The notes under the pieces: generated by a model
The model's database searches: none
Told to the model about the DNA's origin: nothing
The model's input: only the letters and a program-made list of their open reading frames with translations
Shown: positions 1,656-61,191 of the stretch, in pieces
How positions within the stretch are numbered: position 1 is the stretch's first letter
Layout: each line of letters opens with the position of its first letter
Translations under genes and position numbers: made by a program
Origin: Candidatus Moranbacteria bacterium GW2011_GWC2_40_12
Lineage (GTDB): Bacteria; Patescibacteriota; Minisyncoccia; Moranbacterales; UBA11712
Assembly: GCA_000995965.1 (NCBI GenBank)
Contig: LBYD01000001.1
Coordinates: 279,040 to 343,039 of the forward strand
Length of the DNA: 64,000 nucleotides
Direction of reading: 5' to 3'

Positions 1656-3497
1656 TTATTCCAATACTGCCTTGATTCTGCGCACTCCCGCACTGGAGGC
1701 TTCTTCTTTTTTTATACGAAAATTTCCAAGCGCACCTGTCGCGTCCGCGTGCGGACCGCCGCAGATTTCGGAAGAAAAATCAAAAATGCTGTATACCTTG
1801 ACTTTGTCCCCGTATTTTTCCCCGAATACCCCCATGGCACCCATTTTTTGCGCGTCTTCAAGCGTCATTTCCTCGCATTTCACGGGAATATCTTTTGAAA
1901 TGGCTTCGTTGACTAATCCTTCGGTTTTTTGAATTTCTTCTGGAGTCATTTTCTTTTCGTGGGAAAAATCAAGCCGCAATCTCTCGCCTGTGATGTTTGA
2001 TCCTTTTTGGATGACATGGTCACCCAATACTTTTCGGAGAGCCGCCAGAAGAAGATGCGTGGCTGTGTGAAGCCTGGCCGCGCTTTCGCCCGCATCCGCC
2101 AGTCCTCCCTTGAACATTCCCGCGCTGACCGTCCTCGACAGCTCCTGATGCTTTTTGAAATGTTCGTGATAAGATTCTTCATCTACTGCGATGCCATGTT
2201 CACGTGCGATTTCTTTGGTGAGTTCAAGCGGAAAGCCATATGTTGAAAAAAGATGAAAGGCTTTCTCGCCGGAAATTTTTTCCGCGCTCCGGCTTTCAGC
2301 GATGATTTCTTTTATTTTTTTGAGGCCTTTTTCAAGTGTTTGCCGGAATTTCATTTCTTCCTGATTGAGAGCTTCGATGATTTTTTCCGTTTCGCGTCCA
2401 AGCTCGGGATAAACTTCCTTATATTCGGAAATCACGACTTCCGCGATTTTCGAAGTGAAATTGCCTTCGATTCCCAGAATTTTTCCCTGGCGGACCGCCC
2501 GCCGGATGAGCCGGCGAAGGACATAGCCCCGCTCGACATTCGAAGGCAAAACGCCGTCCGCGATCATGAAAGTGGCCGCCTTCAAGTGGTCGGAAACTAT
2601 TCTCATGGAAATTTTTGATTCATCTTCGCTATAGTTTTTTGCGGACAACTCCTCGATCCTTCTGATAATGGGCTGAAAAAATTCCGTGTCAAAAACATTG
2701 TCTTTTCCGGTCAAAACGACAAGCGTTCTCTCCAGCCCCATGCCCGTGTCAACATTTTGCTGTTTCATTTTTTCAAAAGTCGCGTCCGCTTTTTTGTTGA
2801 ATTCCATGAAAACATCATTCCAGATTTCCATCAGACGAAAATTCTTGACAAGGCTTCCGAAAGTATCGTTCACTTTTCCGAGTTCCGGCGAAACATCATA
2901 AAACATTTCGGTGCAAGGCCCGCAAGGCCCCGTTTTTCCTGCCGGTCCCCACCAGTTGTCGTCTTTTCCAAGCGGAATAATTCTTTTCTCATAATTCACA
3001 ATCCTATCTTCGCCGGCTGCTTCGGCTTTGATGCCGACTTTGGCAAATTGCTCCTGCCAGATCCGGATGGATTCTTCGTCACGCACCGCGTCCTCATCGC
3101 CTTCAAACACCGTCACATAGAGCCGGCGCGGGTCGAGCCCCAGCCATTTTTCGCTTGTTATAAATTCAAAGCTCCACTCAATCGCTTCGCGTTTGAAGTA
3201 ATCTCCGAGCGACCAATTTCCGAGCATTTCAAAGAAAGTGAGATGGCGGTTGTCGCCCACTTCGTCAATATCAACAGTGCGGACGCATTTTTGGACGTTC
3301 GCGAGGCGCTTTCCTTTGGGATGTTTTTCGCCCATGAGAAAAGGCACGAGGGGATGCATTCCGGCGGTCGTGAAAAGCACCGTCGGGTCGTTTTCCGGAA
3401 CAACCGGAGCAGACGGAATGATGGCGTGTTCTTTTTCCTTGAAAAAATCGAGATATTTTTGTCTTAATTCTCGAGAGGTCATAAATTTCTTGGCCAA
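1656..3497 (-). CDS. alaS: alanyl-tRNA synthetase, short form (613 aa; catalytic + editing domains, no C-terminal C-Ala domain)
   Basis: N-terminus FTTAGMHPLVPF..., WSLGDYF, editing-domain HTATHLL motif; ends after GGPHADATG. Confidence 0.9.
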   Translation of the reverse strand: MAKKFMTSRELRQKYLDFFKEKEHAIIPSAPVVPENDPTVLFTTAGMHPLVPFLMGEKHPKGKRLANVQKCVRTVDIDEVGDNRHLTFFEMLGNWSLGDYFKREAIEWSFEFITSEKWLGLDPRRLYVTVFEGDEDAVRDEESIRIWQEQFAKVGIKAEAAGEDRIVNYEKRIIPLGKDDNWWGPAGKTGPCGPCTEMFYDVSPELGKVNDTFGSLVKNFRLMEIWNDVFMEFNKKADATFEKMKQQNVDTGMGLERTLVVLTGKDNVFDTEFFQPIIRRIEELSAKNYSEDESKISMRIVSDHLKAATFMIADGVLPSNVERGYVLRRLIRRAVRQGKILGIEGNFTSKIAEVVISEYKEVYPELGRETEKIIEALNQEEMKFRQTLEKGLKKIKEIIAESRSAEKISGEKAFHLFSTYGFPLELTKEIAREHGIAVDEESYHEHFKKHQELSRTVSAGMFKGGLADAGESAARLHTATHLLLAALRKVLGDHVIQKGSNITGERLRLDFSHEKKMTPEEIQKTEGLVNEAISKDIPVKCEEMTLEDAQKMGAMGVFGEKYGDKVKVYSIFDFSSEICGGPHADATGALGNFRIKKEEASSAGVRRIKAVLE

Positions 3498-3739
3498 CCT
3501 TTTTCAATATCTAAACTATGAATTATCCGAGTCTTGCCCGCCAAAGCCTTGGCGTCGGCGGGTCGGAGTTGGTTGGCTGTCATATCTTATTTGAGGCGGT
3601 CCGACCGCTCACCCCTTCGTCTGCGATCGGAACGCTTGAATTCCAGTGATTACAAAAGTAGCTTATTTTATTATAATTGTAAAGAAAAAGCCCGATGACT
3701 TCTTCGGGCGCAAGGCATTCAGCTGGATCCGCGAATTGA

Positions 3740-4045
3740 CTACTGTATAATTTTCATTTTCTTTTTTAGGCCCCTGATCTCTTCTTCCGAATACCTCTGG
3801 TTTTCCTGAATTTTTTTCAGCTTCCTGTCAAGGGCGTCACGTTCGACCCGGATGCGCTCTTCGCTTTTTTTCAGCCTTCTCTGCTCAATTTCAAGAATTT
3901 CTCTTTCGCGGAGAATTTTTTTTAGATTGGATTCGGAAATCACAATCTGGCTCTCGAGCTCCATTTTTTGCCGGCGGATATCGCCCGGATCAGAAGCGCC
4001 GCCGCTATCGTCACTGTTTTGTGAATAATCGTCGAGTAATCCCAT
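3740..4045 (-). CDS. hypothetical small coiled-coil protein (K/E/R-rich)
   Basis: 101-aa ORF, heptad-like charged repeats, tightly packed upstream of mnmA. Confidence 0.45.
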   Translation of the reverse strand: MGLLDDYSQNSDDSGGASDPGDIRRQKMELESQIVISESNLKKILREREILEIEQRRLKKSEERIRVERDALDRKLKKIQENQRYSEEEIRGLKKKMKIIQ

Positions 4046-4051
4046 AAGAAT

Positions 4052-5155
4052 TCAAATTATTGTGCCTCCCCCCAAAACTTCTCCATTTTTATAAAAAACC
4101 GCTGACTGGCCCGCTGTCACCGCCCGAAATGGCCTTTTAGTCTCGACAAGAAGCCTTCCCGACTTGCCTGGTATTATTTTAGCAGATATTCTCGTTGAAT
4201 GGTAGCGAATTTGAACGTCAGCCCGGAACGGCGATTTTTTCTTTTCATTTGTCCAATTGACTTTGCTCACCCAAAATTTCTCTTTGTGCAGCTTTTTCGA
4301 GTCGTTTGTGACAATCAGTTCATTTTTTCGAATATTTTTTCCGATTACCCAATACGGTCCGGTTCCTCCGATTTCGATCCCTTTTCGCTGTCCGATCGTA
4401 AAAATGGGCAAACCTCTATGTCTTCCCAAAACTTTTCCCGCTTCATCAATGATGTTTCCGGTTTCTGATTCAATATTCTTTGAAAAATATTTCATGGCGT
4501 CATTATCCGGCATAAAGCAGATATCTTGCGACTCATTCGTGGCAACCGGCAATTTCATTTCTTTCGCCATTTTTTTTACTTCTGATTTTTTATATCCTCC
4601 CAGCGGAAAAATAATTTTCGACAGATCTTTTTGAGCCAATTTATATAGAAAATACGATTGGTCTTTTGTTTTGTCTTCAGCTTCAAAAAGTCCGGCTTTG
4701 AAAAATTTCGGCGGCTTGCTGGCTGAAAGGCAAAGGCCGGACTTTGATTCACCGGCTAAAATACGCCCGCTTATTTTGGCGTAATGACCGGTTGCCGCAT
4801 AATCCGCCTTTTCTTTCTTCATCAAATCGAAAAGCAGGCAAAATTTCATCTCCTTGTTGCATACGACGCAGGGATTGGGGGTCTGGCCTTTTTTGTACGC
4901 GTTGAGAAAATAATCAATCACCCGCTTTTTGAATTCTTTCCGCGCGTCAATTATTTTCAGCGGAATTCCCAATTTATTCGCGATTTTTTTCACTTGGAAA
5001 CTTAGTTTCCAAGTTTGTTTGGTGAAGACAAAATAAGCACCAATAACTTCGTATCCCTGCTTTTTGAGCAGCGCCGCCGCCACTGCCGAATCCACCCCGC
5101 CGGAAAGGGCGACAACGATTTTTTTATGATTATCTTTTGGTCGCTTGTTCATCAT
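4052..5155 (-). CDS. mnmA: tRNA-specific 2-thiouridylase MnmA
   Basis: PP-loop SGGVDSAVAA, catalytic NPCVVCNKEMKF; contains an in-frame palindromic-element insertion (TWKLSFQV). Confidence 0.9.
   Translation of the reverse strand: MMNKRPKDNHKKIVVALSGGVDSAVAAALLKKQGYEVIGAYFVFTKQTWKLSFQVKKIANKLGIPLKIIDARKEFKKRVIDYFLNAYKKGQTPNPCVVCNKEMKFCLLFDLMKKEKADYAATGHYAKISGRILAGESKSGLCLSASKPPKFFKAGLFEAEDKTKDQSYFLYKLAQKDLSKIIFPLGGYKKSEVKKMAKEMKLPVATNESQDICFMPDNDAMKYFSKNIESETGNIIDEAGKVLGRHRGLPIFTIGQRKGIEIGGTGPYWVIGKNIRKNELIVTNDSKKLHKEKFWVSKVNWTNEKKKSPFRADVQIRYHSTRISAKIIPGKSGRLLVETKRPFRAVTAGQSAVFYKNGEVLGGGTII
4982..5004. repeat. PE-A: 23-nt perfect palindrome ACTTGGAAACT-T/A-AGTTTCCAAGT, copy inserted in-frame in mnmA
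   Basis: identical to the palindromes flanking and inside the RAYT-like gene at 14337-14996. Confidence 0.8.
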
Positions 5156-5202
5156 CTAGCTTTACATGATAGGTTATTTAATGGCTGCTGTCAATTCCGC
5201 GA

Positions 5203-5268
5203 TAAGAAGAAAATCCCTTTTACAAGGGATAAAAATGAGCCTAGAGCACAATCATTCGCCCTAGGCTC
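5203..5268 (-). terminator. two tandem intrinsic terminators (GAGCCUAGGGCG..CUCUAGGCUC + AUUUUU; AUCCCUUGUAAAAGGGAU + UUUCUUCUU)
   Basis: hairpins each followed by U-runs on the minus strand, downstream of ORF 5287-5796 and upstream of mnmA. Confidence 0.45.
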
Positions 5269-5286
5269 AACTCGTTGAGGGTGATA

Positions 5287-13827: not shown

Positions 13828-14313
13828 TTATTTCTTAAGATAATTTAGCAAAAATCTATTTGCTTCCTTGAAAGCATTGCGTGAATTCTTGTATGTAATA
13901 CGCTTGAGGGATTCTTTGTATTCCAGCCAGGAAAAGTTGACGTGTTCAAATGACAATCTCACCTCTTTTTCTTCTGTTTTTGCTAAATAGGCTGTAACTA
14001 TTTTAAAAATGTTTATTCCTCTATTTGACGCCTTTCGTTCTTTTTTCTCATTACCTTTTGCGCGGTAAAAATATTTATACCAAGTATAAAATCCCGGAAT
14101 TATTTCAAATTTTGTAATCCCTGTTTCTTCTTTGACTTCACGGCGCAATGCATCTTCCCATGTTTCTCCTTTTTCAATATGTCCTTTGGGGAAATCCCAA
14201 TGACCCTGAAAGCCATCGCTTTTCGGATGCTGGATTAGTAAATACAATATTTTATTTTTTTCCCTCCGGAACACCACTGCTCCGACTGATTTTTCAAATG
14301 GCATACTCTCCAC
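13828..14313 (-). CDS. NUDIX hydrolase
   Basis: Nudix box GHIEKGETWEDALRREVKEETGI. Confidence 0.85.
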   Translation of the reverse strand: MESMPFEKSVGAVVFRREKNKILYLLIQHPKSDGFQGHWDFPKGHIEKGETWEDALRREVKEETGITKFEIIPGFYTWYKYFYRAKGNEKKERKASNRGINIFKIVTAYLAKTEEKEVRLSFEHVNFSWLEYKESLKRITYKNSRNAFKEANRFLLNYLKK

Positions 14314-14334
14314 TTGGAAACTTAGTTTCCAAGT
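14312..14334. repeat. PE-A palindrome copy at the 3' flank of RAYT-1
   Basis: ACTTGGAAACTTAGTTTCCAAGT, ends 3 nt before the RAYT-1 stop. Confidence 0.85.
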
Positions 14335-14336
14335 CG

Positions 14337-14996
14337 TTATTCGATTATTAATTTTTCCATCTCCTTTTTGTCTTTTATAGAAACCAGCGATTCTTCCGCA
14401 AATTTTCGATAATCTTCCCCATTTTTGAAATCATCCAAAATCACGCGTTTTTCTCCGCAAAACGTCTTTTCTGAAAAATTATCCGTATATTCCCTCCAAC
14501 TTGAAATCGACTTGGAAACTAAGTTTCCAAGTGAATGGACACGGTCATTGAGATTCACGTAGGCGCTTAAGTGCAACAGATAGCTGTTTGTTTTTATATG
14601 GACTGCTTTGAATGTTCCCTGGAAAAGAGAACCAGAGCGCTCGTGCCTCTTGTTGAAATATTTTGTATAACCTATTCCGAGACGGTGCATGAATTTCTCA
14701 ATGCCCTGCTCGGCTGTCTGTTTGAGAATGAAATGATAGTGGTTAGGATTCAGGCAAAAACACACGAAACCGACCAATTTCTTTTTGGATTTGTTCTTTT
14801 CTTTTCTGTCGCGAAAAAAATTTTCATATATGCTTCCGATCGGATCAAGCGTATTGAATTCATCCATACTCTGAAGAAATCTCCGCATATCCAATTGATC
14901 ACTGAAAATTTCCCGCTTGTCCACTCCGCGATTGAAAATGTGGTAATATTCGCCTTCAGCCAATTGTATTTTTCTCATAGCTGGATTATAGCACAA
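14337..14996 (-). CDS. IS200/IS605-family Y1 (HuH) transposase, REP-associated tyrosine transposase-like (RAYT-1)
   Basis: EYYHIFNRG..., HuH motif NHYHFIL, conserved Y in YLLHLSAYVNLN, SGSLFQGTFK; flanked by PE-A palindromes on both sides and contains one in-frame. Confidence 0.8.
   Translation of the reverse strand: MCYNPAMRKIQLAEGEYYHIFNRGVDKREIFSDQLDMRRFLQSMDEFNTLDPIGSIYENFFRDRKEKNKSKKKLVGFVCFCLNPNHYHFILKQTAEQGIEKFMHRLGIGYTKYFNKRHERSGSLFQGTFKAVHIKTNSYLLHLSAYVNLNDRVHSLGNLVSKSISSWREYTDNFSEKTFCGEKRVILDDFKNGEDYRKFAEESLVSIKDKKEMEKLIIE
14510..14532. repeat. PE-A palindrome copy inside RAYT-1 coding sequence (in-frame, encodes LGNLVSKS)
   Basis: ACTTGGAAACTAAGTTTCCAAGT. Confidence 0.85.
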
Positions 14997-15004
14997 AACA
15001 ATCC

Positions 15005-15027
15005 ACTTGGAAACTAAGTTTCCAAGT
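15005..15027. repeat. PE-A palindrome copy at the 5' flank of RAYT-1
   Basis: ACTTGGAAACTAAGTTTCCAAGT, 9 nt upstream of the RAYT-1 start. Confidence 0.85.
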
Positions 15028-23850: not shown

Positions 23851-23857
23851 AGCCCTT

Positions 23858-23878
23858 CGTAGGTGTCGGACACCTACG
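23858..23878. repeat. PE-B: 21-nt perfect palindrome CGTAGGTGTC-G/C-GACACCTACG at 3' flank of RAYT-2
   Basis: distinct from PE-A; located between P-type ATPase start and RAYT-2 stop. Confidence 0.85.
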
Positions 23879-23880
23879 AT

Positions 23881-24528
23881 TTATTCTAGTAAATATTTCT
23901 CCCTTTCCTTTTTCTCTTTCATATACAAAGAATTTTCTTTTATAAATTCTCGATATTCATTCTTATTTTTAAATTCATTAAGAATAACACCTGTGTCACA
24001 AATCCCCCCGTTTCTTTTCCCAGTATAATCTAAAAAACTGGAATATGGCCAGTCAAAATCGTCACCGTATCCATGAATAAAATAGTTTTTGTTAACATAG
24101 GCTGATAAATAAAGAAGATGTGCGTTTGTCCTTATACGGATCGATTTAAATTTCCCCTGAAACAATACTCCGGATCTTTTGTAATGATAGTTGAAATAAT
24201 TTGTATAACCGCCTCCGAGCCTTTTCATATATTCAGAAATTCCATGTTCTGTTGATTGTTTTAAGATCAAGTGAAAATGATTCGGATTAAGACAATAACA
24301 TATGATTTCAACTAATTTTTCCATTCGTAGGTGTCCGACACCTACGTCTTGCTTTCTTTCTTGCTGACTGTGCCTATACAAGCTATGGATAGGATCAATT
24401 TGGTTAAATTCTTTCATGGACGTTAAAAATCGATTATAGTCTCTGTTGGATAAAAAAACTTTCCGTTTTTCAACGCCACGGTTATAAATGTGGTAATATT
24501 CATTGACATCTAGGGGTTGTTTTCTCAT
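23881..24528 (-). CDS. IS200/IS605-family Y1 transposase, RAYT-like (RAYT-2), paralog of 14337-14996
   Basis: EYYHIYNRG, NHFHLIL (HuH), YLLYLSAYVNKN, SGVLFQGKFK; own palindrome PE-B on both flanks and in-frame (VGVGHLR). Confidence 0.8.
   Translation of the reverse strand: MRKQPLDVNEYYHIYNRGVEKRKVFLSNRDYNRFLTSMKEFNQIDPIHSLYRHSQQERKQDVGVGHLRMEKLVEIICYCLNPNHFHLILKQSTEHGISEYMKRLGGGYTNYFNYHYKRSGVLFQGKFKSIRIRTNAHLLYLSAYVNKNYFIHGYGDDFDWPYSSFLDYTGKRNGGICDTGVILNEFKNKNEYREFIKENSLYMKEKKEREKYLLE
24326..24346. repeat. PE-B palindrome copy inside RAYT-2 coding sequence (in-frame)
   Basis: CGTAGGTGTCCGACACCTACG. Confidence 0.85.
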
Positions 24529-24534
24529 AAACCT

Positions 24535-24552
24535 TAGGTGTCGAACACCTAC
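24535..24552. repeat. degenerate PE-B copy at the 5' flank of RAYT-2
   Basis: TAGGTGTCGAACACCTAC (one mismatch in loop). Confidence 0.7.
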
Positions 24553-24580
24553 AAAATCATTTTACCACAAAACCGGCCGC

Positions 24581-25209: not shown

Positions 25210-25248
25210 TTAGAGCTTCGCTAAAGTTGAACCTTAGCGAGAATAGAA

Positions 25249-25276: not shown

Positions 25277-25642
25277 ATTTTATAACATAACTCGACCCAA
25301 CATTAACCATTCCTAAAGTTGAACTTTAGGAAGAGAGGATATCTCGTGGATATTGTCAGTTATTGATTGATGTCAAATCACTATCATACGATAGTAAAAC
25401 AAAAAGCTAAAAAAGGAATCGAAAAATTTTAGAGTTTTGCTAAGGTTCGACCTTAGCAAAGGCAGGAATTGGAAATTTTTTTATATTTCCTTCCTTCCCT
25501 CAATTGCGCCGGTGAGTAACCATTCCTAAAGTTTAACTTAAGGAAGTCAAAAAGAACGAGTCCACAGCTCGTTCTTTGAATATTATCCAAAAATTTGTTA
25601 TCCTAAGGCTTCCTAACATCCGATGTTAGAAAATAGAAAACT

Positions 25643-60465: not shown

Positions 60466-60611
60466 TTCATTAAAAATAAAATCTTCCGCATAGGAAGATA
60501 AGAAATTTATATCTTTCCCTTGCGGGCTAGAGGTAGCACCACGTCTAATAAAAATTAGATTGGTTGCTGGCAGGTCGCAGGGCTAGTTCCCTCGCTGCGC
60601 TCTTGATACTC
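60466..60611 (-). promoter_or_regulatory. SAM-I (S-box) riboswitch with terminator expression platform in the metK leader
   Basis: minus-strand AUCAAGAG-CGCAGCGAGGGAACUAGCCCUGCGACCUGCCAGCAACC...GGUGCUACCUCUAGCCCGCAAGGGAAAGAUA matches SAM-I core; followed by AUCUUCCUAUGCGGAAGAU + UUUAUUUUU just before ATG. Confidence 0.7.
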
Positions 60612-60699
60612 GCCCCGACCTTAATGCGTCGGGGCTTTATTCAATTTTCGAAAGATATATGTATTATAGCGTTTTATATATTCGAGTCAAGGACAATAG

Positions 60700-60772
60700 T
60701 GGACCCGAGGGGATTCGAACCCCTCGCCTCCTCGGTGCAAACGAGGCGCTCTACCAAATGAGCTACGGGCCC
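60700..60772 (-). tRNA. tRNA-Ala (anticodon UGC)
   Basis: cloverleaf folds; G3:U70 identity pair; anticodon loop UUUGCAC. Confidence 0.85.
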
Positions 60773-60789
60773 AAATATACAGTTTATCT

Positions 60790-60860
60790 TGTAAGGCTGT
60801 AAAACAAAAAAGGCGCTCGGACCCTGTCCGCCTTTGGCGGAAAATGAGCTACGGGCCCGC
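60790..60860. repeat. element upstream of tRNA-Ala: conserved hairpin (GGCGCUCGGACCCUGUCCGCC) plus direct copy of the first 20 nt of tRNA-Ala
   Basis: aaaatgagctacgggcccgc at 60841-60860 duplicates tRNA 5' end (60753-60772). Confidence 0.6.
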
Positions 60861-60877
60861 AAACCTAGTTCAAGATG

Positions 60878-60990
60878 CAAAAATCAAAATGAAAAATTTT
60901 GGTGTTCGCTTCGCTCACTTATTTTTAAAAAATAATCATCGCGAAGCGATACATTAATTTTGCACTTTTAATTTTGAATTTTCAATTTAT
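60878..60990. repeat. about 110-bp dispersed repeat with inverted TCGCTTCGC/GCGAAGCGA arms (copy 1)
   Basis: about 85% identical to 63068-63175. Confidence 0.7.
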
Positions 60991-60994
60991 TATG

Positions 60995-61068
60995 TGGGCG
61001 ATCGAGGATTCGAACCTCGGACCTCGTCATTATCAGTGACGCGCTCTAACCAACTGAGCTAATCGCCC
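60995..61068 (-). tRNA. tRNA-Ile (anticodon GAU)
   Basis: cloverleaf folds; anticodon loop CUGAUAA. Confidence 0.85.
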
Positions 61069-61118
61069 AAAGTTTGTTTCTTGCTACGTAGTTTGTTACG
61101 TAACGAGGTAAGTAAATG

Positions 61119-61191
61119 TGGGTCGTGCAGGGATCGAACCTGCGACCATCAGCTTAAAAGGCTGCTGCTCTACCAACTGAGCTAACGACCC
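61119..61191 (-). tRNA. tRNA-Lys (anticodon UUU)
   Basis: cloverleaf folds; anticodon loop CUUUUAA. Confidence 0.85.

Follow-up and report, generated by a model that had tools for sequence, protein, structure and literature searches.

The mnmA gene of Candidatus Moranbacteria bacterium GW2011_GWC2_40_12, which encodes the tRNA 2-thiouridine(34) synthase, contains within its coding sequence a 23-nt perfect palindrome, and this palindrome is an old, length-neutral hairpin, conserved as a stem among mnmA orthologues and belonging to a hairpin family tied to Y1/HUH transposase genes. The gene was studied in a 64-kb stretch of contig LBYD01000001.1 (from here on, the window), where the same palindrome also flanks a Y1/HUH gene, here called RAYT-1. 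The mnmA palindrome is probably an old, fixed copy of a hairpin family of the repetitive extragenic palindromic (REP) type which, with a divergent Y1/HUH gene of the IS200 superfamily similar to tyrosine transposases associated with REPs (RAYTs), is spread across Patescibacteria. Copies of the hairpin are more alike within a genome than between genomes.

The Palindrome and Its Copies in the Window

mnmA (positions 4052 to 5155, minus strand) encodes an intact protein of 367 amino acids (aa) with the SGGVDS motif, the CxxC pair C96/C99 and C213, all of them invariant in 44 MnmA orthologues. The protein has the MnmA domains of Pfam (PF03054/PF20259/PF20258; HUP, PRC-barrel and beta-barrel), scores 370 bits against the NCBIfam model NF001138 (equivalog cut-off 284), matches MnmA structures in the PDB down to 7e-61 and has a counterpart with 100% identity in Candidatus Moranbacteria bacterium GW2011_GWC1_45_18. 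Its gene's palindrome, ACTTGGAAACT-T-AGTTTCCAAGT, with 11-nt arms around one central base, occupies positions 4992 to 5014 and is read in frame on the sense (minus) strand as ACT TGG AAA CTA AGT TTC CAA GT, coding for TWKLSFQV (T48 to V55), between the PP-loop (SGGVDS, residues 18 to 23) and the cysteines C96 and C99. An earlier reading made from the letters of the window (the sequence-only reading) had described an exact in-frame palindrome in this part of the gene, identical to that of RAYT-1, and in these respects it proved right, although its coordinates, 4982 to 5004, were off by 10.

When up to three mismatches are allowed, the window contains four palindrome sites, starting at positions 4992, 14312, 14510 and 15005, all of which are perfect; no match was found in 100 dinucleotide-preserving shuffles, which rules out a chance origin of the copies. 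Three of the four are found at RAYT-1 (14337 to 14978, minus strand; 213 aa): one (15005 to 15027) 26 nt 5′ of the start codon, one (14510 to 14532) in frame within the gene, where it codes for LGNLVSK within ...VHSLGNLVSKSISSW, and one (14312 to 14334) 2 nt past the stop codon and directly 5′ of the start of a Nudix gene. The mnmA copy, 9 kb off, is the only one away from RAYT-1. It is identical to the copy at 14312 to 14334 in 23 of 23 bases on the plus strand, and differs from the other two in the central base alone, as a change of orientation would do; the loop triplet is TAA or TTA in all four. Folded as RNA, the mnmA hairpin is predicted to have 10 bp and a 3-nt loop, with a free energy of –12.2 kcal/mol (z = –4.6), and its three frames are open on both strands.

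The Coded Segment in the MnmA Protein

The sequence-only reading held that the palindrome adds about 8 residues to MnmA, at a place where orthologues normally have a short loop and the structure was expected to show a surface loop. None of the three expectations agrees with the data. In a comparison of 116 close homologues, the region that runs from V37 through L66 is 30 aa long in the palindrome-bearing proteins (33 in a single one, whose 3 extra residues sit just 5′ of the palindrome) and 28 to 32 aa long in those without it, which have, for example, GASAKKSLDKA, NWGNKGLKNA or SWGDASKA. At this site the window MnmA is 8 aa shorter than the structures from B. subtilis, S. pneumoniae and E. 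coli, as measured from HMMER gaps. In one mnmA with an unrelated sequence at the site (L147; loci of other genomes carry L numbers), the DNA was read and the palindrome is absent. The AlphaFold2 model (pLDDT 86) has a strand at residues 36 to 43, a loop at 44 to 48 and a helix at 49 to 62; the palindrome therefore codes for T48 and, in helix alpha-2 of the PP-loop domain, for the first seven residues, or two turns; in the model this helix terminates in the conserved ...IAKKLGIP. The hairpin replaces a variable segment of 8 to 11 residues at no gain in length.

The mnmA region is a hotspot for palindromic elements, given that unrelated palindromes have lengthened it in two other genomes: the mnmA at L145:2001-3134 (P0046) has two in-frame copies of TCCCCCTTT-ACA-AAAGGGGGA, coding for SPFTKGG, and that at L146:2001-3146 (P0031) has an in-frame CCCCGCCCTT-CGCA-AAGGGCGGGG, coding for PALRKGRG, both with a real gain in length.

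The window MnmA does have a segment that canonical enzymes do not, at residues ~131 to 150 (SKSGLCLSASKPPKFFKAGL; window positions 4687 to 4745). It is disordered in the AlphaFold2 model (pLDDT <50) and is coded by an imperfect inverted repeat with 13-nt arms, 92% complementary and 33 nt apart. At the same place orthologues have other repeat-like peptides, such as KVRPFPSPT..GRTL, whose ends, in a reading made at the level of protein, back-translate to reverse-complement codons. This insert was considered as a repeat family of its own and rejected, with no more copies within the window. The likeness of the palindrome-coded TWK to the C-[TS]-W motif of canonical MnmA (CTWKED in L129) is treated as a coincidence, because the register is off by 2 residues in a hand count.

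Conservation and Decay Among mnmA Orthologues

The hairpin is not confined to one genome. At least 16 of 44 aligned MnmA homologues, 58 to 71% identical to the window protein, have the peptide [TAI]W[KN]..FQ[VI] at the same alignment columns, and others form a graded series of decay (STREPSFQV, GTWTSEVQA, SAWNSEVQV, AARASESQA, SSRTSSFQA). In the cluster formed by the window MnmA at 90% identity, every conspecific variant that covers the site retains TWKLSFQV. A metagenome scan with MnmA yielded few useful close relatives.

Ten orthologous mnmA loci were read as DNA. Where their flanks are readable, synteny is conserved (DUF8128, a TrwB/DUF87 ATPase, mnmA, a small open reading frame (ORF), alaS). 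In the window, L031 and L138, all 23 bases are identical though the MnmA proteins are only 63 to 65% identical, and in L139 the central base alone differs. A CGA loop is found in L059 and L144, and a 9-bp stem with a CCGAA loop in L140 and L142; the loops among the orthologues are TAA, TTA, CGA and CCGAA. L137 and L141 have AAG...CTT in place of AAA...TTT, a two-sided change from A:T to G:C at stem pair 9 which falls on two synonymous wobble positions, and in L143 and L114 the hairpin is decayed. The upstream flanks are not conserved among orthologues, and no target motif is therefore apparent.

Among the ten palindrome-bearing orthologues, identical residues are coded by identical codons in a fraction of 0.88 inside the palindrome and 0.55 outside it, and among 189 other windows of five conserved columns not one has so high a value. 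The stem thus keeps its pairing next to synonymous sites that have been scrambled. When the partly decayed L143 is added to these ten, 99 of 99 stem cells are in standard pairs on the sense strand, and all four one-sided stem changes give G.U on that strand, that is, on the mRNA. Codons, stems and orthologues together indicate that the segment is ancestral to a Moranbacteria subclade and constrained as nucleic acid, rather than a lineage-specific insertion. The sequence-only reading had taken the occurrence of the same segment in relatives free of RAYT and REP as the mark of ancestral sequence. Orthologues do carry the segment, but at least two of the genomes with a palindrome-bearing mnmA (JASEHL and JAUXSN) also hold further copies of the hairpin; the segment is thus ancestral to the clade and yet REP-derived.

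The Hairpin Family in Patescibacteria

A scan with the pattern ACTTGGAAA-N5-TTTCCAAGT, with one genome per species, gave at least 113 loci, nearly all of them in Patescibacteria (Saccharibacteria, Paceibacteria, Giovannoni-, Campbell-, Zambryski-, Sung-, Niyogi- and Moraniibacteriota). Among the matches listed, the loops are mostly C-NNN-G, giving 10-bp arms, and in 118 sites a flanking consensus YC-...-GR extends the hairpin to 27 nt. The palindrome is found in frame in many other ORFs of these genomes: of 141 listed sites, 70 are within open frames 150 aa or more in length, with the in-frame readings LGN.VSK (32 sites), LET.FPS (26) and TWK..FQV (12). Unrelated genes carry the hairpin, which is read there in any of the three frames and is also present between genes, and frame use within genes is unequal. 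Matches to the N5 pattern outside Patescibacteria (Clostridia LigA with DLEREFPS, C. difficile and others) have unrelated loops and are likely due to chance or native coding.

The host genes include LepA, ArgRS, LigA, DnaX, an Mfd-like helicase, transketolase and a PMT-family glycosyltransferase, with two hairpin copies in one ArgRS gene and a tandem doublet in LigA (ELGNSVSKLTWKPSFQVEY). In-frame tandem or overlapping doublets are present within long ORFs in L040:1582-1629, L083:2629-2676, L074, L075, L098 and L016, and resemble gene-embedded REP dimers (BIME/REPIN). In several hosts other than mnmA, Pfam coordinates imply a net gain of 4 to 8 residues; the CarD_TRCF_RID domain with the hairpin is 65 aa long vs a model of 57 positions, and the gain in DnaX is 4 to 7.

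Persistence at orthologous codons is not limited to mnmA. Perfect hairpins stand at orthologous codons of two DnaX genes whose proteins are 77% identical, where 8 of 8 codons are identical vs a fraction of 0.54 outside the hairpin, and the same is found in ArgRS (80% identity) and in two more gene pairs (69 and 54%), the pair at 54% having different loops. The loops follow the genome: 118 of 163 within-genome pairs of sites have the loop triplet in common vs 33 expected (53 genomes). Other genomes have at least 6 to 8 copies each in the sampled loci.

RAYT-1, Its Homologues and Its Paralogues

RAYT-1 scores 30 bits against the Pfam family Y1_Tnp (PF01797; cut-off 23), and its HUH motif NPNHYHFIL and Tyr motif AYVNLN are conserved in 8 aligned homologues. 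Against the NCBIfam model for REP-associated transposases (NF047646, REP_Tyr_transpos) it scores 23.3 bits, below the cut-off of 80, and no PDB relative, E. coli TnpA-REP included, was detected by sequence. Its homologues form 4493 clusters at E ≤ 1e-10; the organism names of the 120 listed are nearly all patescibacterial, and the annotation is mostly “transposase,” with two named RayT by JGI.

At eight loci from several classes, a RAYT-like gene has one hairpin within ~30 nt of its start and another right past its stop, and the flanking layout of RAYT-1 is found in L024, L025, L036, L041, L051 and L067. RAYT-like genes may also contain up to two in-frame internal hairpins, neither of which changes the length of the protein: site 1 follows ENSFxK, before the HUH motif, and site 2, VHxLGNxVSKSSW, comes after the Tyr motif and is occupied in L024, L041, L051, L067 and L105, as well as by the copy at 14510 to 14532 in RAYT-1. 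The hairpin copies within one element share the loop triplet. In L013 (JBBTPZ010000003.1), the Y1 gene at locus positions 3178 to 3885 (minus strand) has a variant inner stem, ACTTGGCGC...GCGCCAAGT, in the upstream flank and at both internal sites, which code for LGASGAK and LGARSAK; two standard ACTTGGAAAC copies are found nearby on the same locus. Among 47 RAYT-like homologues in which the two internal sites could both be read, 45 have a single stem-variant residue (N, S, G, D or H) common to the two sites and 29 a common loop residue (permutation p < 1e-4 each), and the residue pairs within a site correspond exactly to reverse-complement codons (N-V, N-I, S-A, S-T, G-T, D-V, H-V, H-M).

The window has a paralogue, RAYT-2 (23884 to 24528, minus strand), 48% identical to RAYT-1 and with a 23-nt palindrome of its own, TCGTAGGTGTC-N-GACACCTACGA, found past the stop codon (23857 to 23879), in frame at site 1 (24326 to 24346; coding for DVGVGHLR) and, as a degenerate copy, just 5′ of the start (24533 to 24553). 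The remnant of a third Y1 gene (25343 to 25429; 29 aa, NHYHTIVKQ..GIEKF) has on either side a palindrome of a third type, TTCCTAAAGTT-G-AACTTTAGGAA at 25310 to 25332 and TTTGCTAAGGT-TCG-ACCTTAGCAAA at 25436 to 25460, and a related imperfect palindrome is located near 25217 to 25241.

Other Candidates and Neighboring Features

Several other origins of the palindrome were considered and rejected. An assembly or adaptor artefact is ruled out, because metagenome-assembled genomes of many independent projects contain the hairpin and show both varying loops and decay at the level of codons. The exact match is absent from viral contigs, which speaks against a phage origin. The plus strand of the mnmA hairpin is terminator-like, yet the count of such hairpins is not above chance (3 vs 1.7), and the palindrome was not retained as a terminator or promoter. 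A scan of the whole window at Rfam gathering thresholds, finally, returned only three tRNAs and a SAM riboswitch, leaving no known RNA family at the palindrome; the riboswitch (RF00162, 47 bits; 60506 to 60612, minus strand) adjoins the three tRNA genes (60700 to 61191, minus strand). Directly 5′ of the mnmA start there is a near-consensus sigma-70-like promoter, TTGACA-17-TATCAT (11/12; 5166 to 5194, minus strand), and further 5′ of it two terminator-like hairpins (5213 to 5269).

Comparison With Known Systems

A close parallel is offered by REP/RAYT systems (REPtrons, among them E. coli TnpA-REP and the Pseudomonas REPINs), in which, as here, a single-domain Y1/HUH gene has copies of its own palindrome at either end, every paralogue goes with a separate palindrome family (ACTTGG..CCAAGT for RAYT-1, CGTAGG..CCTACG for RAYT-2) and further copies occur elsewhere in the genome. 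The differences are several. RAYT-1 falls well under the curated RAYT model (23 vs 80 bits); its palindrome has the foot ACTTGG/CCAAGT and not GT[AG]G, although that of RAYT-2 does contain CGTAGG; nearly the same hairpin recurs across many lineages of Patescibacteria rather than in one species or genus; and copies are few per 64 kb, with about half of those sampled inside long open frames.

REPs translated in frame inside genes for replication, repair and tRNA synthetases have been described (Di Nocera et al., 2013, PMC3733652), and REPs inserted in frame are known from the tnpA-REP genes of subclass 2.4, where they stand between HuH and Y (Quentin et al., 2018, PMC6006769). In-frame REPs and REPs inside tnpA-REP genes are thus documented, and the kind of element is therefore known. 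The hairpins studied here are likewise found in frame in housekeeping genes and in the transposase gene itself, leave the frame unbroken and are “double-foot” palindromes. Unlike those of subclass 2.4, the internal copies precede HuH at site 1 and follow the Tyr motif at site 2; unlike other intragenic REPs, the mnmA copy adds no length, is common to distant orthologues and shows compensatory change. The present case differs in its host phylum, in the foot sequence, in where the internal sites stand, in the lack of any added length in mnmA, and in the persistence and covariation at orthologous codons. A text search of PMC3733652 and PMC6006769 gave no coverage of Patescibacteria in these two articles, and a literature search found no description of REP/RAYT in this phylum.

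RPE-1, one of the Rickettsia palindromic elements (RPEs), comprises elements of roughly 100 to 150 bp that add tens of residues on protein surfaces. The element described here, by contrast, is 23 nt long (up to 27 with its flanks), adds no residue in mnmA, belongs to Patescibacteria and has an obvious associated transposase gene. RPEs are documented in frame in protein genes (PMC3733652; PMC3184786), and the two have in common a palindromic repeat in frame in functional housekeeping proteins of a bacterium with a reduced genome (Ogata et al., 2000, as cited in PMC3733652). Of the likeness to RPEs drawn by the sequence-only reading, the in-frame translation within a housekeeping gene stands and the addition of residues does not: filled and empty sites of mnmA do not differ in length in the way expected of an RPE or an intragenic REP, while some other hosts do show a net gain.

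Hairpins at both ends of a Y1 HUH gene are also a feature of IS200/IS605 elements, whose TnpA, like E. coli TnpA-REP, recognizes hairpins on single-stranded DNA (PMC6006769). There the left and right hairpins delimit one mobile unit that moves as a whole, whereas here the hairpin stands alone at many sites and the gene occurs as diverged paralogues. Finally, DNA uptake sequences (the Haemophilus uptake signal sequence, USS, and the Neisseria DUS) are, in the same way, short motifs in coding sequence that leave its length unchanged and whose frame use is shaped by what the peptide tolerates. Their densities are roughly one to two orders of magnitude above that of the hairpin here, which is moreover perfectly palindromic and tied to a transposase gene.

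Origin, Maintenance and Alternative Explanations

According to the explanation preferred here, an old fixed copy of a REP-type family, the hairpin would have been acquired once in mnmA, in an ancestor of the Moranbacteria subclade. The Y1 enzyme may recognize it on single-stranded DNA and either spread hairpins or copy over existing ones, and its integrity may be kept by concerted evolution, in which Y1 catalyzes copy-over from other hairpins of that genome, or by selection that acts directly on the hairpin; where maintenance lapses, it would decay by point mutation at constant length, as in sequences of the P0005, P0007 and P0029 types. The mnmA copy presumably survives because none of its three frames is closed on either strand, because the coded peptide is tolerated, and because precise loss would delete part of a helix. 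The genome-specific loops favor copying between sites, and the G.U-only pattern on the mRNA strand mildly favors a constraint at the level of RNA.

Some points weigh against this explanation. The neighbor-joining tree of 116 MnmAs is star-like and poorly resolved, does not place the acquisition and resolves no single palindrome clade, so that the single acquisition is deduced from identical position and frame and not from a clean clade. The action of the Y1 enzyme on the hairpin is putative. With one in four window copies away from the transposase gene, the window does not demonstrate a REP-like dispersal in this genome. The explanation does not account for how a 23-nt element took the place of coding sequence of the same length, the G.U-compatible one-sided changes would fit RNA-level selection at least as well as copy-over of DNA, and the covariation counts are inflated by shared ancestry.

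Among other explanations, a recent jump of the hairpin into mnmA in this lineage, with about 8 residues added to a surface loop, would explain why a hairpin exactly like those that flank the RAYT gene is found no more than 9 kb away from it, and recalls both the residues that the hairpin adds in CarD_TRCF_RID and DnaX and the palindromes that truly lengthened the same mnmA region in L145 and L146; it is nevertheless hardly credible, given a region no longer than in palindrome-free orthologues and shorter than in canonical MnmA, the same codons occupied in at least 16 orthologues, no presence/absence variation seen among conspecific sequences, and a peptide that in the AlphaFold2 model is part of a helix. 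Separate acquisitions in different lineages, with the mnmA region as a preferred target, would agree with the unrelated palindromes in L145 and L146, with the varying loops and with a tree that resolves no single palindrome clade. Such recurrence is improbable, since codon position and frame are identical in all palindrome-bearing orthologues, length is constant save for the one protein with 3 extra residues just upstream, the decayed forms make up a graded series, and the unconserved upstream flanks display no apparent target motif.

A structure selected by the host independently of any transposase, be it an mRNA pause or stability element, a protein-binding site or an antisense terminator in mnmA, is unlikely, even though it has the frozen synonymous sites on its side, together with the two-sided change of one stem pair, the four G.U substitutions, the stability of the hairpin (–12 kcal/mol) and the weakly terminator-like plus strand. 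For four wobble changes the chance probability is 1/16, and three of them belong to a single decaying sequence (L143); the terminator-like count, as said, does not exceed chance; the same hairpin recurs in many genes that have no relation to one another, with all three frames in use, as well as between genes; and the genome-specific loop triplet indicates copying between sites and not local selection. An uptake-signal-like or other short motif built by point mutation and a biased process, with no transposase, would fit the unchanged length of the mnmA copy and of both internal RAYT sites, as well as the unequal frame use, expected if the peptide must be tolerated. It is very improbable in view of the very low density (4 per 64 kb, 3 of them at the RAYT gene), of the tight link to both ends and the interior of Y1 genes in many genomes, and of the paralogue-specific hairpins, which are the pattern of REP/RAYT.

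Significance

An attractive reading is thus corrected, in that the mnmA palindrome is not a fresh insertion of 8 residues and is instead a long-standing part of helix alpha-2, common to many species, and a REP/RAYT-like system is shown in the ultra-small Patescibacteria. For annotation, a word of caution follows: where alignments show peptides like TWKxxFQV, LGNxVSK and LETxFPS, these derive from repeats. Whether REPs and REPINs are short-lived parasites or long-term residents is an open question for which the embedded hairpins offer clean material, with perfect stems, genome-specific loops and covarying stem variants that can be traced across genomes whose proteins are 54 to 80% identical. 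As the synonymous sites are a built-in neutral clock, hairpin maintenance, decay and copy-over become measurable.

The mnmA copy itself is of moderate interest, and the main point to follow up is the apparent concerted evolution of hairpins at fixed coding sites across Patescibacteria. We put forward only tentatively, as a possibility that is open to doubt, that the phylum has a hairpin/Y1 system in which hairpins at fixed positions, in essential genes and in the genes of the enzyme itself, are actively overwritten without change of length from a genome-specific master copy, in the manner of a cassette exchange. If this were true, orthologous sites would stay perfect over deep divergence while variants of the loop and inner stem sweep each genome, and the REP family would evolve in concert at fixed coding sites, with a maintained and possibly host-beneficial role of the hairpin rather than a simple selfish insertion.

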